Assembly: GCA_003555465.1 (NCBI GenBank)
Contig: PWIB01000046.1
Location: 1-47,986, forward strand
Length of the DNA: 47,986 bases
Direction of reading: 5' to 3'
Source: Candidatus Aenigmatarchaeota archaeon
Lineage (GTDB): Archaea; Aenigmatarchaeota; Aenigmatarchaeia; PWEA01
Shown here: positions 887-13,803 of the stretch, piece by piece
Position numbering within the stretch: the first letter of the stretch is position 1
Layout of the letters: every line of letters begins with the position of its first letter
Program-made: the position numbers and the translations under genes
The notes under the pieces: generated by a model
What the model was told of the DNA's origin: nothing
Seen by the model: only the letters and a program-made list of their open reading frames with translations
Database searches by the model: none

Positions 887-949
887 AGTTTAACCGATAT
901 CTGACTGCGGAGATTTTATAAATCTAGAGCTCCATTCTTAGGTTGCATT

Positions 950-2953
950 ATGTCCAAGGAAAGGGTACTCATCACCTCTGCACTACCTTACATTCACGGA
1001 ATTCCACACCTAGGTAACATAATAACTTCGATACTTCCTGCGGACGTATATCACAGGTACCAGAGGCTAAAGGGTAAGAACTCCCTTTTTATCTGTGCCT
1101 CCGACTCACATGGAACTATGCATGAAATAGAGGCAAAGAAGGAAGGAGTAAAAACTGAAGAGCTGGTCTACGAAAGCCATGAAAAGGTAAGGTCTCTTCT
1201 CGAGGAATTCAACTTCGACTTCTCATACTACGGAATAACCGACTCCGAGCAAAACAGAAGTACAACGGAGCATATATTCCACAAGCTTGACGAGAACAAC
1301 TACATAGAGGAGAAAAGTATAGACGTGACCTACTGCAGGAACTGCGAGCAGTATCTCGCCGATCGGTGGATCGAGGGCGAGTGCCCCGAGTGTGGTGGCC
1401 TTGCAAGAGGTGACCAGTGCGACGACTGTGGGGAGCTCCTGGAACCGAAAGATATAATAGATCCATACTGCACACACTGCGGAAAGAAGGATATAGAGTT
1501 CAGGAAGTCAAAGCACCTCTTCCTTCAGCTAAACAAGTTTGAGGACTGGTTGAAGGAATGGATAGAAGGAAGGATGGGCAACAAGCTTACAAGAAGCGAA
1601 ACGCTTTCCTGGCTTAACGAAGGTCTGGAAGAAAGGTGCATATCAAGGGACGCTAGCTGGGGCTTCAGCATACCGAAGGAAGGATTTGAGGACAAAGTCT
1701 TTTACGTATGGTTCGACGCACCTATAGGATACATAGGCGCTACAAGGAGCTGGGCGGAGGAAAACAACGAGGACTGGGAGGAGTGGTGGAGGGACGACTC
1801 CATCGAGTACTTCCAGTTTATGGGAAAGGACAACATACCCTTCCACAGCATAATCTTCCCGAGCATGCTGAAAGGTACAGAGGAGCAATGGAACTTCGCC
1901 GACCATATAGTCGCTGGAAGCTTTATCCTTGCTGAAGACGTGAAGTTCTCAAAGAGCAGGGGAAAGGGGTTGAACCTTGAGACGGCGCTTGATGTAAGGA
2001 ACTCTGAATACTGGAGATACGTTCTTATGGCGCTCTACCCGAGAAACACAGACACAACCTTCTCCTGGGACGCCTTCAAGGAAAAGGTAAACAAAGAGCT
2101 CACTGACTCCTTCGGGAACTACGTCCATAGGATCCTGAAGTTCATAGACGAAAACTTCACCTCGGAAATTCCTGATGGTGAGATGGACGAAGAAGTTGCC
2201 CGTGAAGTAAGGGAGAAGATAGAAGAGATGGAAAGGGAACTGGAGGACTTCAGATTCAGGCAAGCAGTAAACAAGATAATAGAGATATCATCCCTGGGGA
2301 ACCAGTACTTCCAAAGAGAAGAACCTTGGAAAAAGATGGGCTCGGACCCTGAGGAGTGTAAAGATATAGTTTATACCTGTGCAAACATAGTCAGGTCCCT
2401 GGCAATAGTTTCCGATCCGTTCCTGCCAAAGACGGCGGAGAAGCTCTGGAGCTTTATTGGCATGGAAACGAATATACACGAGGAAAGTTGGACTAAGGCC
2501 AAAGAGTTCGATCTGAGAAGTAAAACTATAACCGAACCTGAACCGTTGTTTGAAAAAATAAAGGACGATGATATACCTGACTTTGACAACGAAAAGAATA
2601 AAAGCAAAAAACAAGGAGGTGAAGAAAATATGATTAGCTTTGATGAGTTCAAGGAGCTTGACATCAGAATCGGTGAGATTAAAGAGGTTGATGACATCGA
2701 GGGTTCCGACAACCTGCTGAAGTTCCAGATAGACGTAGGTGACGAAACGAAGCAGTCCGTCGGTGGTCTGAAGGGACATTACACAGAAGAGGAGCTTGTA
2801 GGTAGAAAGGTTCCTGTGCTTGTAAACCTCGAAACATCCGAACTGATGGGCGAGAAAAGCGAGTGTATGATTCTCGCGGCCGTTGTAGGAAACAAAGAGC
2901 CTGTGCTTCTTGAGCCAGAAAGGGATCTAGAGGCTGGAACAGGAGTCGCATAG
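950..2953 (+). CDS. metG: methionyl-tRNA synthetase with C-terminal tRNA-binding (Trbp111/EMAP-like) domain
   Basis: HIGH-type motif PHLGN, KMSKS-type motif KFSKS, and zinc knuckles CRNCEQ/CPECGG/CDDCG/CTHCG. The C-terminal OB domain reads DIRIGEIKEV...LLKFQIDVG. TATA TTTTATAAAT lies about 30 nt upstream. Confidence 0.95.
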   Translation: MSKERVLITSALPYIHGIPHLGNIITSILPADVYHRYQRLKGKNSLFICASDSHGTMHEIEAKKEGVKTEELVYESHEKVRSLLEEFNFDFSYYGITDSEQNRSTTEHIFHKLDENNYIEEKSIDVTYCRNCEQYLADRWIEGECPECGGLARGDQCDDCGELLEPKDIIDPYCTHCGKKDIEFRKSKHLFLQLNKFEDWLKEWIEGRMGNKLTRSETLSWLNEGLEERCISRDASWGFSIPKEGFEDKVFYVWFDAPIGYIGATRSWAEENNEDWEEWWRDDSIEYFQFMGKDNIPFHSIIFPSMLKGTEEQWNFADHIVAGSFILAEDVKFSKSRGKGLNLETALDVRNSEYWRYVLMALYPRNTDTTFSWDAFKEKVNKELTDSFGNYVHRILKFIDENFTSEIPDGEMDEEVAREVREKIEEMERELEDFRFRQAVNKIIEISSLGNQYFQREEPWKKMGSDPEECKDIVYTCANIVRSLAIVSDPFLPKTAEKLWSFIGMETNIHEESWTKAKEFDLRSKTITEPEPLFEKIKDDDIPDFDNEKNKSKKQGGEENMISFDEFKELDIRIGEIKEVDDIEGSDNLLKFQIDVGDETKQSVGGLKGHYTEEELVGRKVPVLVNLETSELMGEKSECMILAAVVGNKEPVLLEPERDLEAGTGVA

Positions 2954-2975: not shown

Positions 2976-4019
2976 TCAGTCAATTTTCTTTAGTTCGTAC
3001 TCTCTGCTGCCTAAACCTATCTTCTCTGCATGTTTAACCTGTATGTCCGGATTTACCATAACTTCTTTGAACATAAACTTGGACTTGCCTATGAGATCCA
3101 GACTGGCCTGATCTATAGCTACAGGGTCCTCTGAGACCAGAACACCTACGTCTTCCACGAAAGGTTCCTGCTTCTCATCGACACAGTCACACTTCTTTGT
3201 TATATTCAACAGGAAGCTGACAAAAAGAACCTTTCTTTCTTTAACTACACCCTTTGCATACTCGGCTATCCTCTTCTGAAGCTCCTTCCGCGAGCTTGAG
3301 GCCCATGGTATCTTCACAGCTCCCTCCGGACAGACAGCAATACAGCCTCCGCAGCCCACACACTTTTCGTGGTCTATTTCGGCCTGCTCAGAAGATAGCA
3401 AACCTTCTGAGGATATAGAAATCGCATCCTCGGGACAGTTCTCAACACATTTTCCACAGGCTACGCATTTCTTCCCTTTGATCTTCAGTTGAAAGGCATT
3501 GTGCATCTCCACCTTGCCTGCCTTGCTTCCTAGACCCATGCCGATGTTTTTCAGTGCTCCTCCGAAGCCACTTCCCAAATGGCCTGTAAAATGTGTTACT
3601 GCAAGCAGACAGTCGTAGTCCTGAAGAGCTCCACCAAGTCTAACCCTGTCGAATATATCTCCGTCTATCTCCACTTCCGTTTCTTCCCTACCTTTCTCGC
3701 CGTCAGCTATTACTATCGGCGCGAAATCAAAGCCGTTGTCTCTTGCAACTTTTTTGTGCGTAGAAGCAAGAGCTCGGGGGCTGTTATACAGTACTGTGCA
3801 GTCCATAAGGTCACAGGCTTCACCTTTCCCTTCAACAAGACTGTATATAGGCTCAACCCAACCAGGCTTCAGGTGCGTATCGCTGTCCCTCTCGCCGAAG
3901 TGCAACTTTAAAGCTATCTTCCTTCCATTGAAATCCTTAAGGAAAGGTTCTAACTTCTCAGCGATTTCTTCCGGATTAATGGACTCGACGTCGGTCTCCC
4001 AGAGGTATACGTCTGACAC
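2976..4019 (-). CDS. DUF362 domain protein with 2x[4Fe-4S] ferredoxin insert
   Basis: Two CxxCxxCxxxCP motifs (CVACGKCVENCP, CVGCGGCIAVCP) sit inside a DUF362-like scaffold (KIALKLHFGE...). GTG start. Confidence 0.8.
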   Translation of the reverse strand: MSDVYLWETDVESINPEEIAEKLEPFLKDFNGRKIALKLHFGERDSDTHLKPGWVEPIYSLVEGKGEACDLMDCTVLYNSPRALASTHKKVARDNGFDFAPIVIADGEKGREETEVEIDGDIFDRVRLGGALQDYDCLLAVTHFTGHLGSGFGGALKNIGMGLGSKAGKVEMHNAFQLKIKGKKCVACGKCVENCPEDAISISSEGLLSSEQAEIDHEKCVGCGGCIAVCPEGAVKIPWASSSRKELQKRIAEYAKGVVKERKVLFVSFLLNITKKCDCVDEKQEPFVEDVGVLVSEDPVAIDQASLDLIGKSKFMFKEVMVNPDIQVKHAEKIGLGSREYELKKID

Positions 4020-4057
4020 TTTACCAATCTATGGATGTTTTTCTTCAGTAAAAAGGT

Positions 4058-4076
4058 TTGGAAACGGAGTTTCCAA
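4058..4076. repeat. perfect 8-bp inverted repeat TTGGAAAC-GGA-GTTTCCAA
   Basis: Read directly. It lies 39-57 nt upstream of the DUF362 GTG start and about 80 nt downstream of the tRNA-Pro 3' end. On the minus strand it is followed by CCTTTTTAC. It shares its arm sequence with the hairpin at 41719-41740. Confidence 0.6.
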
Positions 4077-4143
4077 TACTTGAAAATCAACGACTTTCAA
4101 TATTGTGCTGTATTTTTCATGAACGTTTTTGCGACCGAAGGGA

Positions 4144-4152
4144 GTAAAAAGG
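4144..4152 (-). terminator. oligo-T tract directly after tRNA-Pro
   Basis: The minus strand reads ...CCA-GAACCTTTTTAC immediately 3' of the encoded CCA. Archaeal terminators are typically T-runs. Confidence 0.35.
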
Positions 4153-4155
4153 TTC

Positions 4156-4285
4156 TGGTGGGCCGGCCGTGATTTGTCCAAACCCAAGGTCCAGCCTTTT
4201 GGCTGAAACCTTTTCTAAAGGTTTCTTGAACACGGGTCTGGGCGCCCCGAACGCCCGATGCTAGTCCAGGCTACACCACCGGCCC
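4156..4285 (-). tRNA. tRNA-Pro (anticodon CGG) with a roughly 52-nt intron in the T-loop and an encoded CCA
   Basis: Minus strand reads GGGCCGG-TG-GTGT-AGCCTGGACTA-GCAT-C-GGGCG-TTCGGGG-CGCCC-AGAC-CCGTG-TTCAA[intron]AT-CACGG-CCGGCCC-A-CCA. Acceptor, anticodon and T stems pair perfectly, and the D stem pairs with 2 GU. G37 fits tRNA-Pro. Confidence 0.8.
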
Positions 4286-6295: not shown

Positions 6296-8308
6296 ATGAT
6301 AACGGGACTGAAGCTTGAGAACTGGAAGAGTCACTCGGATTCAGAGTTCGAGTTTGGCAAAGGTACAAATGTTCTGGTAGGTGTCATGGGTTCAGGAAAG
6401 AGTTCGGTTCTGTCTGCAATTTCCTTCGCACTTTTCGGAACCTTTCCCTCGCACCGTTCGAGAGAGGTAACCCTGGACGACATAATAATGAACAGGCCAC
6501 AGAAGAAAGAAGAGGCAAAGGTCAAGCTAGAGTTTGAGATAGAGGGCCAGGAGTTCGAGATAGAAAGAGTTATAGCGAGGGGAAAAGGAACGAAGGAGGC
6601 AAGTATAAGGAAGGGCGGGGAGCTTCTTGATACAGGCCCTTCGAGGGTTACCGAACTTGTCGAGAAATACCTCAAGGTGGACTACAACCTATTCTCAAGA
6701 GCCGTTTACGCAGAGCAGGACGGCTTAGATAACTTTCTCGAGATAAGGAAGGGCGAGCGTATGAAAAAGATAGACGACCTTCTACAGATAGACAGGTTCG
6801 AGGAATGCAGGAGCAATGTAACTACTTTGACTAACCGGATGGAGGAGAGGATAAAGTCCAAGAAGAAGACAGTCGAGGAGATGGAGGAGCAGGAGGACTT
6901 CAGCAAGATCGAGGAACTGGAGGAAGAGATCGGAGAAATTAAAGAAGAAATGGAAGAGCTGGAAGAGAAGCTGGAAAGACTGGACGAGGAGTATCAGGAG
7001 AGAAAGGAAGAGATAGAAGAGCTTAGAGAAGGCCTTGATGAGATAAAAAAGCTTGAAAACAGAAAAAGCACTATAAAAGGCTCCATATCAAGCTTAGAAG
7101 ATGATATAGAGTCTTTGAAAGATGAAGCAGAGTTTTCAGAAGAAGAAGTTGACGAAAAGCTGGAGAAGAAGGAAAAAGAGTTGAAAGAGCTTGAAAACGA
7201 AAAAGAAGTGATCAAAGAAGATTTAGATGGTCTGGAGGACAAGCAAAAGGACAGAAAGATCAGGATAAAGGAGATTCAGAAGAAGATACAGAAGATAAAG
7301 GGCGTAGAAGGTAAGTGCCCTGTATGCGACAAGGAACTGGACGGGGATCACAAAAAAGAGTTACTAGAAGAGAGGAGAGAAAAGGTCTCAAAACTAGCCG
7401 GAGAGAAAGAAAAGTTGGAGAGCAGAATCGAGGAAAAGGAGTCAAAGCTGAAGGAAATTAACGAAAATAAGGAGGATCTGAAGGAAGAAAAAAGGAGTCT
7501 TGAAAGGAAAAAGGAGTCTCTGGATAAACTAGAAGAGAAGAAGGAGGATCTCAAGGAGAAGAAAGAGAAACTTCAGAATATATCCGAAGAGTTGGAGGAA
7601 AGGCAGGAAAAGTTCGATCGCGAAAAGATAGAAGAGAAACAGGAAAGAGTGAATGAAATTTCCGGTGAGAGGGAAAGGATAAAGGAGAGGGCAGAAAACA
7701 AGAAGGAGATCATGGAAGAAAGGAAGGGTGAGAAGGAGAAGTTAGAAGAAAGGAAGGAAAGGTTTGAGAAGTACAAAGAAGAAATAAAGAGTTCTGAAGG
7801 GTTGATTGAGGATTTAAAGAAGTTCAAGAGTGCTTTAAGTTCCACGCAGGAGCAGCTAAGAACAAAGTTCATAGAAGCCGTGAACAGCACTCTAACCAAA
7901 GTATGGGGCAGCTTATATCCATATGACGACTTTTCAGATCTTAGATTTACTATAAAGGAAGGTGACTACGAGCTCCAGTTCAAAAACAAAGGAAGCTGGC
8001 AGTCCGTAGAAGGTATAGCTTCAGGTGGTGAAAGGACCTCTGCATGCCTTGCCCTTAGAATTGCATTTGCCCTTGTCCTAGCTCCCAATCTACGCTGGCT
8101 TGTCCTCGACGAGCCCACCCACAACTTAGACAGACAGGCTGTAAAGGACCTCTCGGAACTTTTGAGGACAAGTGTTTCCGAGTTCGTTGACCAGGTTTTC
8201 CTGATAACCCACAACGAAACCATGGAGAACGCCGCAAGTTCGCATCTCTACAAGCTCAACAGAGACAAGCACAGAGACGAACCAACGGAAGTAGAAGAGA
8301 TAACCTAG
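6296..8308 (+). CDS. rad50: Rad50 ATPase (short form, 670 aa) with zinc hook
   Basis: Walker A GVMGSGKSS, central CPVC hook inside an E/K-rich coiled coil, signature SGGE, Walker B LVLDEP, His-loop ITHN. Confidence 0.9.
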   Translation: MITGLKLENWKSHSDSEFEFGKGTNVLVGVMGSGKSSVLSAISFALFGTFPSHRSREVTLDDIIMNRPQKKEEAKVKLEFEIEGQEFEIERVIARGKGTKEASIRKGGELLDTGPSRVTELVEKYLKVDYNLFSRAVYAEQDGLDNFLEIRKGERMKKIDDLLQIDRFEECRSNVTTLTNRMEERIKSKKKTVEEMEEQEDFSKIEELEEEIGEIKEEMEELEEKLERLDEEYQERKEEIEELREGLDEIKKLENRKSTIKGSISSLEDDIESLKDEAEFSEEEVDEKLEKKEKELKELENEKEVIKEDLDGLEDKQKDRKIRIKEIQKKIQKIKGVEGKCPVCDKELDGDHKKELLEERREKVSKLAGEKEKLESRIEEKESKLKEINENKEDLKEEKRSLERKKESLDKLEEKKEDLKEKKEKLQNISEELEERQEKFDREKIEEKQERVNEISGERERIKERAENKKEIMEERKGEKEKLEERKERFEKYKEEIKSSEGLIEDLKKFKSALSSTQEQLRTKFIEAVNSTLTKVWGSLYPYDDFSDLRFTIKEGDYELQFKNKGSWQSVEGIASGGERTSACLALRIAFALVLAPNLRWLVLDEPTHNLDRQAVKDLSELLRTSVSEFVDQVFLITHNETMENAASSHLYKLNRDKHRDEPTEVEEIT

Positions 8309-9868
8309 CTACATGAATGACTCTGCATCTTCCTCCCTCTGTTCGCTTTCATCCATGTACTGCTTAGCTGCTTCCTCGAGAGGCATACCCCTTTCGTTCT
8401 CCTTGCTCTTTCTCTCTCTGATCTGGGCAAAAAGAGGGTAGTTAACTGCTTCGCCAACTACAAAGGCCTCGCCTACCCGAAGAGAGGAGATGGTTTCAAG
8501 AACGTCACTTGTGAGGCCTTCGCTGCTTTTGCCTATATGATCCTGGTCGTAGGGATTTGTGATTCTCATTATTATCTTTGTGTTGCACTGTGAAAGCGCC
8601 GTCGTATCCAGCTTTATAGGCCTCTGTGATATCAGGCATAGAGAGGAATGGAACTTTCTTCCTTCCCGGGCTATCCTCTGTATAACAGGCCTTGAAAGAG
8701 CGTTTCTCCTCTTCTTGCCTTCAGGAACAAAGTTGTGAGCCTCCTCGAGGACAAAGAGGAATGGTGGTATCTCGCTGTTCTGTCTCTTGAAGAAAAGTTT
8801 TCTGGCCAGATAGGTTACGAGCATCTGCCTCTCCTCCAAGGAAGTAAGATCAGAGATATCTATTATTGCTGCTTCACCAGGACTCACAAGATCCTCCACA
8901 GGCGGATTGTCCGCGACTCCGAAAAGTCCTGTTCTCTCCAACTGAGAAATCTCAGAAATGAGAACTTCTTTGGTTGAGGACTTTATGGACTCGTCCTTGG
9001 CAACATAGTCCGCTATGTCCGAAAGGCTGTAGGTCTCACCGGACTTGTCCTTTTTTATCTCCCTTAAGATTCTCCCTATCTCCCTCCTCTGTGCTCCTGA
9101 GAGGTTTGGTTTAAGGTTGAAGAACAAAGAGGGTGTCAGGTTCGAGGCTCCTATCTTGAAGTCCTTGCCTCTAACAACCCTTGTTCTGCTCCTGTATTTC
9201 TCATCGTCTCCAAAGCCTATGTACTCGCCATGTGTATCTATTATTACAGTTCCTACCTGCCCCGAATCCTCGTCTCTGTCCAGAAGCTCCTCTATCATTA
9301 CAGAAGTCAGGTAGGACTTCCCTGCACCAGAGAGAGCAAGTATGGACATATGCTTCTGGAGAAGCCTCGTCATAGAAAGCTTGACAGGAAGTTCATGGTG
9401 ACCTACCGTTCCTATATGAAGACCGTCTTCGTTGTCCAGGCCTAGGAAATCAGAAAGTATATCCTCCTTTATCATCTTAACTTCGGTTCCAGGCGACGGC
9501 GGAAAGGTAGCGCGCCTTATCTGACCGTCGTTGTAAACTCCGAGGGGCCTTGCCTCACCCACGAGGTATTCCCATCTCTCCGCCGGAAAAATCTCAGTTA
9601 GCTTCTTGCCTTTACGCTCGTACTCGCGGACGGACTCTGCTCTGTCAAAGTACCGATTGGTTTTATAGATGTCCGAGACGCGGGCTATAAGCCTTCCTTC
9701 CTCGGAGCCGAGCATTATGAACTGGTTCTGTCTGACCGGAATGTCACCTGAGTCCTCGTCGATGACGAAGCTGAACTGCGACGCAGAAGGCCCATCGGGC
9801 GTTGAAATAACTGTTCCTATCTGTTCCGTCATATTAATCCTTGATAACATACTACTAAGTTTTCTCAT
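8309..9868 (-). CDS. herA: HerA-type hexameric DNA helicase/translocase
   Basis: N-terminal HAS-barrel-like region (IGTVISTPDGPSASQFSFVI), Walker A LSGAGKSY, Walker B VLEEAHNF. The true start may be the internal ATG at 9832 (MTEQIG...). Confidence 0.85.
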   Translation of the reverse strand: MRKLSSMLSRINMTEQIGTVISTPDGPSASQFSFVIDEDSGDIPVRQNQFIMLGSEEGRLIARVSDIYKTNRYFDRAESVREYERKGKKLTEIFPAERWEYLVGEARPLGVYNDGQIRRATFPPSPGTEVKMIKEDILSDFLGLDNEDGLHIGTVGHHELPVKLSMTRLLQKHMSILALSGAGKSYLTSVMIEELLDRDEDSGQVGTVIIDTHGEYIGFGDDEKYRSRTRVVRGKDFKIGASNLTPSLFFNLKPNLSGAQRREIGRILREIKKDKSGETYSLSDIADYVAKDESIKSSTKEVLISEISQLERTGLFGVADNPPVEDLVSPGEAAIIDISDLTSLEERQMLVTYLARKLFFKRQNSEIPPFLFVLEEAHNFVPEGKKRRNALSRPVIQRIAREGRKFHSSLCLISQRPIKLDTTALSQCNTKIIMRITNPYDQDHIGKSSEGLTSDVLETISSLRVGEAFVVGEAVNYPLFAQIRERKSKENERGMPLEEAAKQYMDESEQREEDAESFM

Positions 9869-10003
9869 TTACAAATGCTTTGGTTCTTCATTAGTTGAAG
9901 ATTAACAATATGTAGTTTAAGTTAAGGGCGACTGTGTTGTAAGAGTTCTCCACTTTGAAGCTGTGACTAAGGTCTTTAGAAAGGTCAGGGTGAGATGTAG
10001 TGC

Positions 10004-10020
10004 CTAAAATAAAAGAAAGG
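10004..10020 (-). terminator. T-rich tract after the Cys-array mini-gene
   Basis: The minus strand reads CCTTTCTTTTATTTTAGG directly after the stop at 10023. Confidence 0.3.
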
Positions 10021-10022
10021 GG

Positions 10023-10205
10023 TTACTGGAGTTCGTCCAGTCTTTCCTCTACTGCTTTGAGCTCTTTCTCTAGCTCCTCTTTGTACTCTTGGAGCCTCCT
10101 TGCTTTTTCTTCCTCAGTCCTGAACCTTCTCCAGCCGTGGTGTCCGCAGGTGCAGCCACAAGAACATCCACACGAGCAGCCGCAGTTGCAGTCTGTTCCG
10201 CACAT
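10023..10205 (-). CDS. Cys-array mini-protein (metallothionein-like N-terminus plus coiled-coil tail)
   Basis: The 60-aa sequence is MCGTDCNCGCSCGCSCGCTCGHHGW, then RRFRTEEEKARRLQEYKEELEKELKAVEERLDELQ. It has 9 Cys in the first 20 residues. TATA CTTTATATAG lies about 25 nt upstream of the ATG (leaderless geometry), and a T-tract follows the stop. Confidence 0.6.
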   Translation of the reverse strand: MCGTDCNCGCSCGCSCGCTCGHHGWRRFRTEEEKARRLQEYKEELEKELKAVEERLDELQ

Positions 10206-10225
10206 GGTATCACACAGTAACCTAC

Positions 10226-10248
10226 TATATAAAGTGAAGTATTTAAAT
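10226..10248. promoter_or_regulatory. back-to-back TATA boxes of a divergent promoter pair
   Basis: TATATAAA (serves the minus gene, ATG 10205) and TATTTAAAT (serves the plus gene, ATG 10301, with SD AGGTGA at 10291-10296). Confidence 0.45.
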
Positions 10249-10300
10249 CCAGAAGTTAACTAATGTAAAGGTACTGGGAAAAACTAAAGCAGGTGAACAG

Positions 10301-10654
10301 ATGTCCAAAAAGAACGAGGAATGTTGCTGCGAAGACAGCGTCTGTCTATGTTCGACGGAAGGAGTTTTAGATCTCATATCAAAGAAGTGGACCTTGTGTA
10401 TAGTAAACCATCTCGGAAGTAAAGAAGAGGGGTACAGGTTCAACGAGCTGGAGCGGTCCATGGACGGTATAAGCCCGAAGTCCCTTTCGAACAGACTGAA
10501 GGAAATGGAAGAACAAGGATTGGTGGAGCGGAAGGTGAAGGACACAAATCCACCGGAGGTCAGGTATATACTCACAGAAGACGGAAGAGAGATGAACGAA
10601 AAACTGAGACCGCTTCTGGAGTGGATAGATCAGAGAAGTGAAGGCGTGCTTTAA
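10301..10654 (+). CDS. HxlR/DUF24-family winged-helix regulator with Cys-rich N-terminus
   Basis: Core LDLISKKWTLCIVNHL...YRFNELERSMDGISPKSLSNRLKEMEEQGLVERKV...PPEVRYILTEDG is typical HxlR. The N-terminal ECCCEDSVCLC cluster is unusual. Confidence 0.8.
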   Translation: MSKKNEECCCEDSVCLCSTEGVLDLISKKWTLCIVNHLGSKEEGYRFNELERSMDGISPKSLSNRLKEMEEQGLVERKVKDTNPPEVRYILTEDGREMNEKLRPLLEWIDQRSEGVL

Positions 10655-10815
10655 AAACATAAATTCTACAACAAAGGAAAGGCACAAGGGAAATATCTGA
10701 GTTTATATTTGAGGAGTGAGAGGGACCACAGAAGTATACCAAGGCTCAAATCTTCAAACACAGACTTGATCGCAACATATAAAACATTAAATTAATGGAA
10801 GAAGTTAGAGGAAAC

Positions 10816-11340
10816 ATGTTGGAACTTGAGCGTACATTTCTGGCGAAGTACCTTCCTGAATTAGAAGGTTGTGAGAAGGTAAGGATAAAGGACATCTACG
10901 TTCCTGTAGATATGAAACATCCTGTTATAAGGATACGTATGAAAGGAGACAGCTACATGATAACCAAGAAGGAGCCGGAGGACGGTGATGCATCGGCACA
11001 GAACGAGTATACTATACCGCTCACCGAGGAGGAGTTCCGTGCCTTTGAGGGAGTAGAGGGAAAGGAGCTTGTCAAAGTCCGATACTACATGGACTGGAAG
11101 GAGAGGACGGCCGAAATAGACGTCTTCGGTGGAAAGCTTGAAGGGTTGGTTCTCGTGGACTTTGAATTTGACACAAAGGAAGAAAAGGAGAACTTTGAGC
11201 CTCCTGAGTTCTGCCTTGCAGATGTCACGCAGGAGGAGTTTATAGCTGGTGGCATGCTTTGCGGTAAGAGCTATGGAGATATAAAGAAAAAATTGGAAAA
11301 ATGGAACTACGAACCCGTGGGAACTGACCGCAATATATAA
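10816..11340 (+). CDS. CYTH-domain (triphosphate tunnel metalloenzyme) protein
   Basis: N-terminal MLELERTFL resembles the ExExK start of CYTH proteins, here ELERT. It also carries VIRIRMKG, VKVRYY and IDVFGGKLEGLVLVDFEF. The TATA position favours the ATG at 10816 over 10795. Confidence 0.7.
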   Translation: MLELERTFLAKYLPELEGCEKVRIKDIYVPVDMKHPVIRIRMKGDSYMITKKEPEDGDASAQNEYTIPLTEEEFRAFEGVEGKELVKVRYYMDWKERTAEIDVFGGKLEGLVLVDFEFDTKEEKENFEPPEFCLADVTQEEFIAGGMLCGKSYGDIKKKLEKWNYEPVGTDRNI

Positions 11341-11378
11341 AACCTTGAGGGAAAAAATAGTTGGAAGTTGGTGTCGAA

Positions 11379-11975
11379 ATGAAGATATTTGCGCTTGCGG
11401 ACCCGCACGGAAACATGAAGCTCTTGAGGGAAGTTCTGGACGAGGTCAACAGTAAAAACTACGACGTATTTCTCGGTCTGGGTGACTTCATGTCGAAGAA
11501 GTTTTTCTCAGAGCTCGTGACAAACCTCGACGTAGAGAAGAAGTCATTCATTCCTGGAAACAGGGACTACGGGATGAAGAAGCTCCCCTATCTTAAAAAT
11601 ACAGACAGCTTCGACTTTGATGGAATTAGGTTCGCAATGATAGGTTCACATCACTTCCCCAACCTCAAGGAAAAGGTAGTTGAGATGTTCGAGGATGTTG
11701 ACCCGGAAAGGGTCATAGTAGGTTCGCACGAGCCCCCTCAAAGGGCGAGGGACGAAGTACACAGCGGAGCGAGAATAGGTGTACCGGAATTCAGAGAAAT
11801 CATAGATGAAAAGCAGCCTATGGCGTGGTTGTGCGGACACGTGCATGAGGCAGAAGGTGTCTCGACGGTCGGGAACACAAAGGTAGTCAATGCAGCAGCT
11901 TCACAGGAAGTTATGGGCTACAGGCTTACCGTCGAAGACAACAAGCTTCAGGAAGTCAAAAGGCTGGAAAGATGA
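11379..11975 (+). CDS. calcineurin-like metallophosphoesterase
   Basis: Motifs are DPHG, LGDF, GNRDY, GSHEPP, CGHVHE. The likely start is MKIFALADPHG, an internal ATG of ORF 11361. Confidence 0.75.
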   Translation: MKIFALADPHGNMKLLREVLDEVNSKNYDVFLGLGDFMSKKFFSELVTNLDVEKKSFIPGNRDYGMKKLPYLKNTDSFDFDGIRFAMIGSHHFPNLKEKVVEMFEDVDPERVIVGSHEPPQRARDEVHSGARIGVPEFREIIDEKQPMAWLCGHVHEAEGVSTVGNTKVVNAAASQEVMGYRLTVEDNKLQEVKRLER

Positions 11976-12724
11976 AGTTTCTAAAGGAAAAGCCAGCTCT
12001 CCTCCTGGACGAGACTGACAAGAGAACTCTTGTTATAGGTGATCTGCACCTCGGTCTGGAGTACGAAATATACAAAAAAGGTATCTCTATCCCACCAAGA
12101 GTAGACAAACAGAAGGAGAGGATAAACAACCTCATTGGGAAAACCGAAGCCGAAAGAATCATACTTCTTGGCGACGTAAAACACAATGTTCCACAGACCT
12201 CTGTATCAGAAAAAGAAAGGCTTCCGCAGTTCTTTGAGGACCTTTCGCAAAGGGTTGAGGTAAAGATAACAAAGGGGAATCACGACGGAAATATAGAGAA
12301 ACTGGTGGAAGGCACAAATGTAGAAATAACGCCCACAGAAGGGTTCAGGGAAGGTAAGTTTTACTTCAACCACGGTCAGTCGTGGCCAGGTAAAGAGATA
12401 AAGGACTCAGAGATACTCATAAGAGGCCATTCACATCCTGCCGTTGAATTCAAAGACAGCCTCGGATTTTCTTCGACCGTTCCCTGCTGGGTAAGAGGCC
12501 CGACAAGGAGGAAGGTTATCGAGGGGAAATATGAAGAGGACGTGGACCTGGAAGAGATAATAATACTTCCGGCTTTCAATCAGCTTTTAACCGGGATGCC
12601 TATGAACAAAGAAGAGGGGAAGAATCTTTTAGGACCTATACTGGAAAACGAAGCTATGGATGTAGACGAATCAAAGGTTCACCTTCTCGATGGAACTTAT
12701 ATTGGAAAGCTCGAGGATCTTTAG
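11972..12724 (+). CDS. SbcD/Mre11-related archaeal phosphoesterase (paralog of 23079..23834)
   Basis: Motifs are GDLHLG, LLGDVKHN, GNHD, GHSHPAV, ILPAFN. A 4-nt ATGA overlap with the upstream gene indicates an operon. Confidence 0.75.
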   Translation: MKFLKEKPALLLDETDKRTLVIGDLHLGLEYEIYKKGISIPPRVDKQKERINNLIGKTEAERIILLGDVKHNVPQTSVSEKERLPQFFEDLSQRVEVKITKGNHDGNIEKLVEGTNVEITPTEGFREGKFYFNHGQSWPGKEIKDSEILIRGHSHPAVEFKDSLGFSSTVPCWVRGPTRRKVIEGKYEEDVDLEEIIILPAFNQLLTGMPMNKEEGKNLLGPILENEAMDVDESKVHLLDGTYIGKLEDL

Positions 12725-13803
12725 AAAGGTCTCTCGTCCCTCCTGAGCTTGTAAAGCGAAGGTACGTCGCCGACCTTGTCCTGTAAAGACGAATATATGA
12801 ACTGCAGTTCCTCCTCCTTCAGGCTTGCTCTCTTGTCTGCTTCAATAAGAACAGTCGGTATAGCATACTCCTCATTGTCGGCCGAAAGCGAAAGAAGCCT
12901 TGAAGCTACTCTGTCGGCTGTTTCAGCAGGGTCCTCCGAAGCGTAGAAGTCGACCCTCAGAGGTCTGTCGTATTTCGTAGCTTTGAGGTAAAAAGAGTAT
13001 ATGTTTTCAAGTATACTCTTTGGAAGATAGGACTTATCGAAATCATCACAGTATCGGAAATAAGATGTCCTCTCACCTTGTTTCAATACATGAAACAGAA
13101 GATTAGTATCTCTTGTTCCCTTTAGAATTTCCTTAAGCTTCCTTTTCTTTTCGCTTCTGACCCTTTCGAGTATATCGTCGGAAACTATCTTCGAGAACTT
13201 CCTTGACCTGGAATCCTCGGAAACTCCTGCCAGAAGGCAAGGTGGGTTGCTTAAAATTTTGTCGTATATCTCAACAACTTCTTCAAACTTCTCCTCGACA
13301 TCCGAACTATCGCCAGGATTGGTTGAGGGATGAGGTACTATAGAACCGTCCATTATAAGGAGGCTTAGATCCTCCCTGTCCATTGATTTCAGCGCAACGT
13401 TGGCTTCTATCTCCATCCTCTCAAGGTTGGCTGCCAGAGAAAAGTCCTCCCTTGAAAGAGGTTCAGTGAAAACAGAGAGCTTAGGCGTAGGCAGAGAACT
13501 GGGGAAGTAGCTTACGTTTTCCAACCCATCTTTAAACTCAAATACCACAGCTACAGCCTTGGTTAGAACCAGGTCGACAGCATGGTAAGACTTTTTAAGA
13601 AGGCCTCCGTCTATGCCACAGATGCTTTCGCCGTCCAGATCTGCTTCCTCCACCTCTATAGATATCTTCTTCTCAGGAATCTTTCTTCCTTCTATCTCTG
13701 CGTCCTTAACTTCTTGGAGAAAGTTCCCCAGTCTCTTCCTCTTGTTTTCCAGCCTCTCTACTTGTCCTGCTATATCGTCGAGTTCAGAAAGAATCTCCTG
13801 CAT
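12721..13803 (-). CDS. nurA: NurA-family nuclease
   Basis: NurA-like motifs are ICGIDGG...AVDLVL and LLIMDGSIVPHP, with a C-terminal IPTVLIEADK. It is 360 aa and genomically detached from herA. Confidence 0.7.
   Translation of the reverse strand: MQEILSELDDIAGQVERLENKRKRLGNFLQEVKDAEIEGRKIPEKKISIEVEEADLDGESICGIDGGLLKKSYHAVDLVLTKAVAVVFEFKDGLENVSYFPSSLPTPKLSVFTEPLSREDFSLAANLERMEIEANVALKSMDREDLSLLIMDGSIVPHPSTNPGDSSDVEEKFEEVVEIYDKILSNPPCLLAGVSEDSRSRKFSKIVSDDILERVRSEKKRKLKEILKGTRDTNLLFHVLKQGERTSYFRYCDDFDKSYLPKSILENIYSFYLKATKYDRPLRVDFYASEDPAETADRVASRLLSLSADNEEYAIPTVLIEADKRASLKEEELQFIYSSLQDKVGDVPSLYKLRRDERPF

Follow-up and report, generated by a model that had tools for sequence, protein, structure and literature searches.

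A divergent gene pair in an Aenigmatarchaeota contig

We analysed a divergent pair of genes in a contig of a Candidatus Aenigmatarchaeota archaeon (PWIB01000046.1, assembly GCA_003555465.1, positions 1 to 47,986). This whole stretch of 47,986 nucleotides (nt) is called the window, and coordinates refer to it unless another locus is named. One gene of the pair (10023–10205, minus strand, stop codon included) encodes a Cys-rich mini-protein of 60 amino acids (aa), and the other (10301–10654, plus strand) a 117-aa winged-helix regulator of the HxlR/DUF24 family (PF01638). The features of the two genes and of their relatives, described below, on balance point to a module that responds to metals or metalloids.

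The translation of the minus-strand open reading frame (ORF) at 10023–10205 is MCGTDCNCGCSCGCSCGCTCGHHGWRRFRTEEEKARRLQEYKEELEKELKAVEERLDELQ. It contains nine Cys in total, every one within residues 1–20 and arranged as C-x-C repeats, in agreement with an earlier note on this DNA that had described nine Cys in 20 residues of a 60-aa protein. In the functional sense this size and Cys content are those of a metallothionein; Metallothio_2 and the other Pfam metallothionein models gave no match to the protein. The Cys/His-rich head, MCGTDCNCGCSCGCSCGCTCGHHGW (codons 1–25; 10131–10205, minus strand), is a putative metal-thiolate binding region. The tail (codons 26–60 and the stop codon; 10023–10130, minus strand) consists of an RRF-x-T motif followed by an amphipathic helix and is a putative coiled-coil or oligomerisation module. 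The AlphaFold2 model has a single confident helix at residues 31–59, with a predicted local distance difference test score (pLDDT) of 95–98, and a pLDDT of about 48–52 in the head. The head is thus predicted to be disordered without ligand, and by our own reading of the model the hydrophobic residues of the helix are spaced three to four apart, in a coiled-coil-like manner.

Comparison of the mini gene with four Aenigmatarchaeota orthologs (L005, L006/L001 and L007) gave ratios of nonsynonymous to synonymous substitution (dN/dS) of 0.04–0.25 at dS of about 1–2.9, and the differences among the orthologs of three Aenigmatarchaeota metagenome-assembled genomes (MAGs) lie mostly at synonymous sites. 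A local hidden Markov model (HMM) of the family described below scores the window protein at 72.9 bits. Because of the low dN/dS and the existence of hundreds of homologs, the sequence comparisons lead us to regard the mini-ORF as a real gene, and the same two observations rule out its being a chance or antisense ORF. An 87-aa Ser/Leu-rich ORF antisense to it (10000–10263, plus strand) mirrors the coding strand, is of low complexity and is almost certainly no gene. The T-tract that had been noticed behind the mini gene is present as TTTCTTTTATTTT (10006–10018, minus strand), 4 nt past the stop codon on direct reading of the sequence, and is a plausible archaeal oligo-T terminator. A scan for sigma-70 promoters and hairpin terminators was discarded as unsuited to archaea, and both 'terminators' that it gave are on the wrong strand, within the mini ORF. 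Tandem Repeats Finder found no DNA-level tandem repeat in the Cys array.

The mini-protein belongs to a large family with variable heads and a constant tail

A word-indexed search gave four relatives of the mini-protein, and an exhaustive profile search that covered 1.84 billion cluster representatives gave 836 matching representatives at E ≤ 1e-3, of which 39 reach E ≤ 1e-10. The profile matches are, with few exceptions, 44–105 aa long. The family is widespread in archaea and is present in bacteria. All relatives share one architecture, in which a hypervariable N-terminal head precedes a near-constant tail. Among 259 members, the heads are 8–73 residues long (median 30) and are composed of 22% Gly, 17% Cys, 12% His and 5% Met. 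The median number of Cys per head is five; CxC occurs in 240 of the 259 heads and CxCxC in 133, and 110 contain at least four His. The tail comprises 33–45 residues, is nearly free of Cys and follows the pattern [WF]RRF-x-T-x-EEK...L-E-x-Y...L-x-K-E-L-x-A-V-E-E-R-I-x-E-L, with R26, Y41 and E48 invariant in 108 members.

Some lineages depart strongly from the window protein in the head. Thermoplasmata heads are greatly enlarged, with HGHHKKGHH runs together with CCC and CSCG blocks, and the mini ORFs at L012, L014, L033 and L038 reach 104–108 aa. In other lineages (P0214, P0182) such heads give way to repeats of Met and His, MGMHHGQGG occurring four times in P0214, or to stretches of Gly and Met. 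From these variants the head seems to evolve by gain and loss of repeats while the tail stays fixed.

DUF5320 (PF17253) is the top Pfam match for the window mini-protein, at 19.6 bits against a gathering score of 27, and orthologs score 16–20 bits. The alignment is confined to the tail, pairing mini-protein residues 22–59 with positions 58–99 of the 99-position profile, and the Arg-rich motif of DUF5320 type before the charged C-terminal helix is present in the window protein. A DUF5320 match at E ≤ 0.01 occurs in 27 of the 108 family members scanned (best E-value 2.3e-5); none of the members tested reaches the gathering score. The only metallothionein match among the 108 is that of ortholog P0002 to Metallothio_2 (24.9 against 23 bits), a score that composition probably explains; NCBI names this protein 'DUF5320 domain-containing'. 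None of 120 homologs listed in a large database has a Pfam domain on record, and they are listed as 'hypothetical protein'. On sequence grounds the mini-proteins are therefore best described as a large unannotated small-protein family bordering DUF5320. The loose resemblance of the tail to DUF5320 that had been suggested is thus retained as a top, sub-threshold match. The Cys array had been taken for an oddity relative to DUF5320; because all relatives share the same architecture, array and tail together are the hallmark of the family.

The regulator represents a subfamily of HxlR proteins with an N-terminal Cys cluster

The product of the plus-strand gene starts MSKKNEECCCEDSVCLC. Its match to PF01638 scores 80.3 bits (cutoff 20.8; E = 1e-22) and extends over residues 25–112 and profile positions 1–86 of 91. 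Fourteen PDB sequences match it with E-values of 1e-14 to 1e-10, including 3df8, 7bze (HxlR), 4hqm (QsrR), 5hs7 (YodB) and 4a5m (YybR). AlphaFold2 predicts four helices and two strands, with a long helix at residues 93–115, at a mean pLDDT of 84 and above 90 in the winged helix-turn-helix (wHTH) core. Models of the ArsR family score far under their cutoffs (HTH_5 12.8 bits, HTH_metalloreg 15.4 bits).

The N-terminal arm contains the sequence CCCEDSVCLC (codons 8–17; 10322–10351, plus strand), in which C8, C9, C15 and C17 are putative sensing ligands. AlphaFold2 renders this arm as a small beta-hairpin (strands 9–11 and 14–16) with low to moderate confidence. In a database search with the regulator, scores of at least 128 bits are followed by a sharp drop to 106 bits, and this break delimits a subfamily of about 29 clusters. 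Its signature is CC-x(2-6)-C-L-C-[PST]-x-E-G together with a Cys in helix 1 (W-[AT]-[IL]-C-I), which in the window is codon 33 within W-T-L-C-I (10397–10399, plus strand). An alignment of 27 subfamily members shows no substitution at C8, C9, C17 and C33, and C15 is kept in at least 90% of them. The position of C33 is occupied by Leu in most outgroup HxlR proteins, so that this Cys is specific to the subfamily, and C10, the third Cys of the window 'CCC', is confined to Aenigmatarchaeota sequences. In Bacillus subtilis HxlR the aligned counterpart of C17 is the Cys of 'FNCE', which we take to be Cys11, the sensing Cys of the family. The score to PF01638 and the conserved subfamily signature together bear out the identification of an HxlR/DUF24 regulator with an ECCCEDSVCLC cluster.

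In a wider archaeal clade, which spans sequences from Methanosarcina, Nitrososphaera, Bathyarchaeia, Woesearchaeota and Asgard, C-x-C-P is kept and auxiliary Cys residues are found elsewhere, either as an N-terminal C-x4-C or as a C-terminal CxxxxC or CxC.

The divergent pair is conserved in several archaeal lineages

HxlR-anchored loci from named genomes were scanned with the local mini-family HMM. Of 36 informative loci of the five-Cys subfamily, 20 have a mini-ORF that precedes the HxlR gene in divergent orientation. These 20 comprise all three Aenigmatarchaeota loci, one MAG labelled Thermococci and otherwise Thermoplasmata-type MAGs, which according to their record titles come from soda-lake and hypersaline sediments. 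The pair also occurs with four remoter HxlR proteins of the CxC type, in Methanohalophilus (L041), Methanocellaceae (L043) and Thermoplasmata-type MAGs (L045, L046). No mini-ORF was found divergent to HxlR at five bacterial HxlR loci. Viewed from the side of the mini gene, a divergent HxlR gene is present in 10 of the 18 contexts that were distinct and informative, among them an archaeal contig (L058), a Woesearchaeota MAG (L059) and Bathyarchaeia-type contigs (L066, L071–L074); an ArsR or PadR gene lies immediately upstream in 2 of the 18. A metagenome search with an alignment of four mini-proteins gave 11 loci.

The linkage of the two genes extends beyond mere synteny, because at L002 and L003 the pair stands in neighbourhoods unlike that of the window. 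The earlier note had named lack of conservation of the pair in relatives as an outcome that would count against a functional module; the pair is in fact kept across several archaeal lineages and in unrelated neighbourhoods.

A single Thermoplasmata contig (CAZHUM010000013.1) contains two of the loci. At L009 a full five-Cys HxlR gene is present without a mini gene. About 10 kb away, at L056 (2607–3126), a mini gene lies beside a stretch that matches HxlR residues 1–42 only, and this stretch may be, judging from the match, a decayed or diverged second copy.

Conserved elements in the shared control region

The 95 nt between the two start codons (10206–10300) form the divergent control region of both genes. 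The corresponding start-to-start gap is 93–100 nt in nearly all pairs, and the region was examined in an alignment of 20 pairs (A4). Close to the mini gene, TATCAC on the plus strand (10208–10213), which reads GTGATA on the mini strand and ends 2 nt before the mini ATG, is invariant or nearly so (A4 columns 9–14). From its position and conservation we infer that it is a Shine-Dalgarno-like or initiator element of the mini gene. At the other end of the region a Shine-Dalgarno-like AGGTGAA (10291–10297, plus strand; A4 columns 92–98) lies 3 nt before the HxlR ATG and is nearly invariant.

By direct reading of the sequence a TATA box, TTTATATA (10226–10233, minus strand), lies 20 nt before the mini ATG, a distance appropriate for a leaderless transcript. 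This position is TATA-like in Aenigmatarchaeota loci only, and not in those of Thermoplasmata. The leaderless-distance TATA box claimed previously for the mini gene therefore holds within Aenigmatarchaeota and fails as a general feature, both genes having Shine-Dalgarno-like motifs. A second TATA-like box, TTTAAATA, is found on the mini strand 35 nt before the mini ATG.

The most prominent element is a central block, GAAGTATTTAAA (10236–10247), that is invariant or nearly invariant across the 20 pairs (A4 columns 38–48). Its family consensus, AAAGTATWTAAA, is conserved across pairs at about 35 nt from the mini ATG and resembles a TFB-recognition element (BRE) followed by a TATA box. Blocks of the same type are present in the L058, L066 and L043–L046 pairs. 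A conserved G-x-AGTTTA follows about 5 nt beyond AAAGTATWTAAA in A4.

Overlapping the central block is a dyad, TTAAATC-CAGA-AGTTAAC (10243–10260), with the consensus [T/A]TAAAyy-N4-rGTTTA[A/T]. Its position is fixed in all 30 pairs examined, and a match at 9 or more of 10 positions occurs in 19 of the 30 compared with 3.9% of shuffles; the window copy is imperfect, and another site in the window scored higher. The left arm of the dyad is the central TATA box itself, and the dyad is therefore a possible HxlR operator that would let a repressor compete with TBP and TFB. It could equally be read as two back-to-back TATA boxes. A generic search for 9-mer palindromes gave top matches that were inconsistent between loci. 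An apparent two-arm covariation to the left of the TATA box failed on inspection, and the fixed-position dyad was the only candidate to survive.

Genomic neighbourhoods of the regulator and of the mini gene

Two loci in cultured archaea place relatives of the regulator among genes for soft metals. In Nitrososphaera gargensis (CP002408.1; L083, 2501–4876) an HxlR gene is followed by a gene for a 92-aa membrane protein starting MFCC and then by a gene for MerA, which matches the TIGR02053 equivalog model at 590 bits against a cutoff of 454. The gene order suggests a mer operon of an archaeon whose regulator is of the HxlR type. The HxlR protein is of the CxC type and has a C-terminal AHCSC motif; on the upstream side of the locus are genes for two Cys-pair membrane proteins and a redoxin/SCO1-like gene. 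In Methanosarcina (DUJU01000078.1; L080, 1–4100) a CxC-type HxlR gene (with ICLCPLEG) lies among genes for an HMA P-type ATPase and three HMA-domain proteins. One of the latter is CopZ-like, with GMSCGHC, and the one that was scanned passes the TIGR00003 cutoff. By gene content L080 is a heavy-metal island. L080 also holds a gene for a CbiA/ParA/ArsA-like ATPase, and the related locus L081 a YHS gene. Neither the Methanosarcina nor the Nitrososphaera HxlR loci have a mini gene within their 2.5-kb flanks. The merA and copA/copZ-like contexts suggest a tie between the Cys-cluster HxlR clade and soft-metal genes.

Genes near mini genes include several for metal(loid) transport. Within 2.5 kb of the mini gene at L058 are genes for a YHS-domain P-type ATPase, a YHS protein and an LMWPc protein. 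An ArsP_1 permease gene lies directly downstream of the mini gene at L013, with an ArsR gene nearby. At L068 a PadR gene is upstream and a gene for a transporter of the chromate-efflux family downstream, at L066 an ABC exporter gene is downstream, and at L061–L065 genes for CorA, MgtE and Nramp transporters are nearby. The ArsP_1 permease of L013, which is from a Thermoplasmata MAG (1491–2903, minus strand; 917–1213, plus strand), is 352 aa long, scores 250 bits and is encoded on the same strand as the mini gene; the ArsR gene beyond it is small, and split ArsP_1-like genes lie on the far side of the HxlR gene, one with a putative Fe-S domain.

At L057 an ArsR-family regulator gene (3518–3931, plus strand) lies directly upstream of the mini gene (4001–4261). 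The C-terminus of this regulator (...CSCRCHGVRRFRGKRL...LKKYEKKLERELEDVRGQVFEIE) contains a fused mini-like Cys motif, RRF and a helix, and scores 17.8 bits against the family HMM. Going by this match, the fusion may be a Rosetta-stone link between the mini module and wHTH regulators. At L059 in Woesearchaeota, genes for a Nitro_FeMo-Co (NifX-like) protein and two CbiA/ParA-Fer4 ATPases are found 1.5–4 kb from the pair. At L021, L022 and L030 the divergent partner of HxlR is a Cys-rich DUF2703 protein (83–92 bits) that also matches 'DF family (seleno)protein' of NCBIfam below threshold. Judged by position, the DUF2703 gene could be controlled by the same HxlR regulator in place of a mini gene.

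In the window itself the pair is surrounded by a repair cluster at 6296–13803, which comprises genes for a Rad50-like structural maintenance of chromosomes protein (6296–8308), HerA (8309–9868), two calcineurin-like phosphoesterases (11361–12724) and NurA (12721–13803). The same gene order recurs in the Aenigmatarchaeota locus L001. A 181-aa ORF directly downstream of HxlR (10795–11340, plus strand) has no Pfam match at E ≤ 1, and L001 has a 174-aa ORF without Pfam match at the same position. A recent horizontal insertion of the pair was considered and is unsupported, as the GC content of both genes, overall and at third codon positions, is near that of their neighbours.

A proposed metal(loid)-responsive module and its alternatives

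With moderate confidence, we propose from these sequence data that the pair is a stress module for thiophilic metals or metalloids, consisting of a repressor and a metallothionein-like binder. An HxlR dimer would bind the shared 95-nt region at or beside the central TATA box, repressing the mini gene and probably its own gene too. A soft metal or metalloid, for example Cu(I), Hg(II), Cd/Zn or As(III), would be coordinated by the Cys cluster of HxlR, with the CC and C-x-C motifs of its N-terminal arm and the helix-1 Cys as ligands. Coordination would free HxlR from the DNA and so derepress the mini gene. The induced mini-protein would capture the metal via its disordered Cys-array head, and the conserved helix would either oligomerise the protein or dock a partner such as an exporter. 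We infer DNA binding by HxlR at this site, repression, the metal signal and its identity, and metal binding by the peptide from the composition, conservation and context of the two genes.

The composition of the heads is the chief discriminator between this proposal and a purely redox role. Because His and Met stand beside Cys, with HGHH and MGMHHG repeats, the heads are more readily understood as metal ligands than as redox buffers. The earlier note had left open whether the module senses and buffers thiols or metals, and the merA, copA/copZ-like, ArsP and YHS ATPase contexts favour the metal half of that description.

Several observations weigh against a metal(loid) module, and some of them agree as well with a thiol-redox, electrophile or reactive-sulfur module, which we consider unlikely. 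HxlR would then sense by disulfide formation or S-alkylation, like YodB, HypR and QsrR, and the mini-protein would be a sacrificial thiol buffer or persulfide carrier. All characterised HxlR/DUF24 regulators, to our knowledge, sense electrophiles, oxidants or aldehydes and not metals; the window regulator is a clear member of this family, and its C17 aligns with the Cys that senses redox signals and electrophiles. About 16 of the 36 subfamily loci have no adjacent mini gene. These unpaired loci adjoin genes for an ArsR-like protein by a NiFe hydrogenase, DUF2703, a Cupin_2 protein with a Fer4 protein, a DsbD/AhpC-redoxin fusion and a thioredoxin-reductase-like protein, neighbours that fit thiol-redox stress equally well, and HdrB-like CCG proteins are also found beside the subfamily. 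The soda-lake and hypersaline sediments from which the host MAGs derive are presumed sulfidic. The neighbourhood sample is, moreover, small and non-random, no metal transporter lies beside the pair in the window, where it stands within the Rad50/HerA/NurA cluster, and the candidate operator is indistinguishable from two inverted TATA boxes. Against a redox role, the heads contain much His and Met in addition to Cys, and a thiol buffer makes little sense because some heads are poor in Cys and contain many His or Met. The same HxlR clade also flanks merA and copA/copZ-like genes, and mini genes adjoin metal(loid) exporters.

A further difficulty for the metal(loid) module lies in the tail, a conserved helix of 35 residues in which R, Y and E are invariant and for which a passive metal sponge has no obvious need. 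It is distinctly unlikely, in our judgement, that the mini-protein is an accessory factor of DUF5320 type for Fe-S or metallocluster assembly or trafficking, acting with NifX/NifB-like carriers and Mrp/MinD-type ATPases while its Cys array holds a cluster transiently. DUF5320 is the best Pfam match, reaching E ≤ 0.01 in a quarter of the members scanned (27 of 108), and gives P0002 its NCBI name; the NifX-like protein and the CbiA/ParA-Fer4 ATPases lie near the pair at L059, and a NifU-like gene is near P0004. The DUF5320 gathering score is nevertheless not reached by any member tested, the NifX/ATPase cluster was seen in one sampled context only and is non-adjacent, and a stress-type repressor and heads varying from 8 to 73 residues suit detoxification or buffering better than a housekeeping scaffold. 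Very unlikely is a mini-protein that acts as a regulatory subunit, that is, a metal-sensing co-repressor or anti-repressor whose coiled-coil tail pairs with wHTH regulators and whose head acts in trans. The L057 ArsR with its fused mini-like module (CSCRCHGVRRF and a helix), the usual position of mini genes beside a wHTH regulator of the HxlR, ArsR or PadR family, and the invariant R, Y and E of the tail are consistent with such a subunit. However, the window HxlR has no mini-like tail and ends in the normal C-terminal helix of its family, the only fusion seen, at L057, has a weak score, and a regulator beside its own target is a simpler account of the adjacency. We would likewise give a small chance to a broader version, in which the mini-protein is a detachable metal-sensing subunit whose head captures the metal and whose helix joins wHTH regulators or itself, switching transcription. 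The module would then be free-standing, as in the window, or fused to a regulator, as in the L057 ArsR.

Should the metal(loid) module be confirmed, at least 836 sequence clusters of 'hypothetical' mini-proteins would gain a function, and the Cys-cluster HxlR branch would become a candidate regulator of archaeal merA, copA/copZ-like and metal-buffering genes. Related regulators in Nitrososphaera gargensis and Methanosarcina make both claims accessible to tests in cultured organisms, and a use of the short, modular peptides as metal-binding tags or as parts of biosensors is conceivable. If instead the mini-protein were a detachable subunit, it would represent a new widespread class of trans-acting small-protein co-regulators in archaea and bacteria, with a hitherto unrecognised metal-sensing HxlR branch as partner.

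Comparison with known systems

The logic of a repressor paired with a metal-binding peptide and thiol-based sensing by HxlR proteins are both already known; the components and their combination are new. The new parts are an HxlR branch with a Cys cluster tied to metal genes and a family of Cys/His mini-proteins with a coiled-coil tail. A literature search of partial coverage found no description of a DUF5320 function, of HxlR together with a metallothionein, or of HxlR in connection with copper or mercury in archaea, and in the literature searched the statement that no such module has been described in archaea stands. We know of no metal-sensing HxlR and of no characterised archaeal metallothionein-type system.

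The regulator shares PF01638 membership and a Cys at the sensing position with the known HxlR/DUF24 proteins (B. subtilis HxlR, YodB and HypR/YybR, and Staphylococcus aureus QsrR). Those have one N-terminal Cys, sometimes with a distal partner, for electrophiles, oxidants or formaldehyde, whereas the present subfamily has four to five clustered Cys and neighbourhoods that point to metals. A CxC with extra Cys on a flexible N-terminal arm of a dimeric wHTH repressor recalls CopY, which binds Cu(I)/Zn through CxCx4CxC, and the N-arm and CxC sites of CadC/ArsR. These belong to other protein families with the motif elsewhere in the fold, and the resemblance is a lead only.

On the side of the mini-protein, the RRF...helix tail resembles DUF5320, an uncharacterised small-protein family whose canonical heads are rich in Gly, Met and Pro; the Cys-array head and the sub-threshold scores set the present family apart. 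Hpn and Hpn-like of Helicobacter pylori and MymT of Mycobacterium are small His/Cys-rich metal-storage peptides that share with the mini-proteins a very small size, a cytosolic location and a predominance of His and Cys, including CC and CxC pairs. The likeness seems especially marked for the Thermoplasmata orthologs, whose heads contain HGHHKKGHH, CCC and CSCG. No sequence homology of the mini-protein to Hpn, Hpn-like or MymT was detected, and those proteins have neither a conserved coiled-coil tail nor an HxlR partner.

The system as a whole recalls SmtB/SmtA of Synechococcus PCC 7942, a metal-sensing repressor with a divergently transcribed metallothionein. Both consist of a Cys-rich protein of about 56–60 aa and a winged-helix repressor, in the window a putative one, divergently arranged about an operator-promoter region of about 100 bp, and the proposed logic, metal-dependent derepression of a metal-binding peptide, would also be the same. 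The two differ in that the regulator here is of the HxlR/DUF24 and not the ArsR/SmtB family and that the hosts are archaeal. The conserved helical tail is absent from SmtA, and no bacterial metallothionein model matched in the scan of 108 members. A relative of the mini-protein does, however, pair with an ArsR regulator, at L057.

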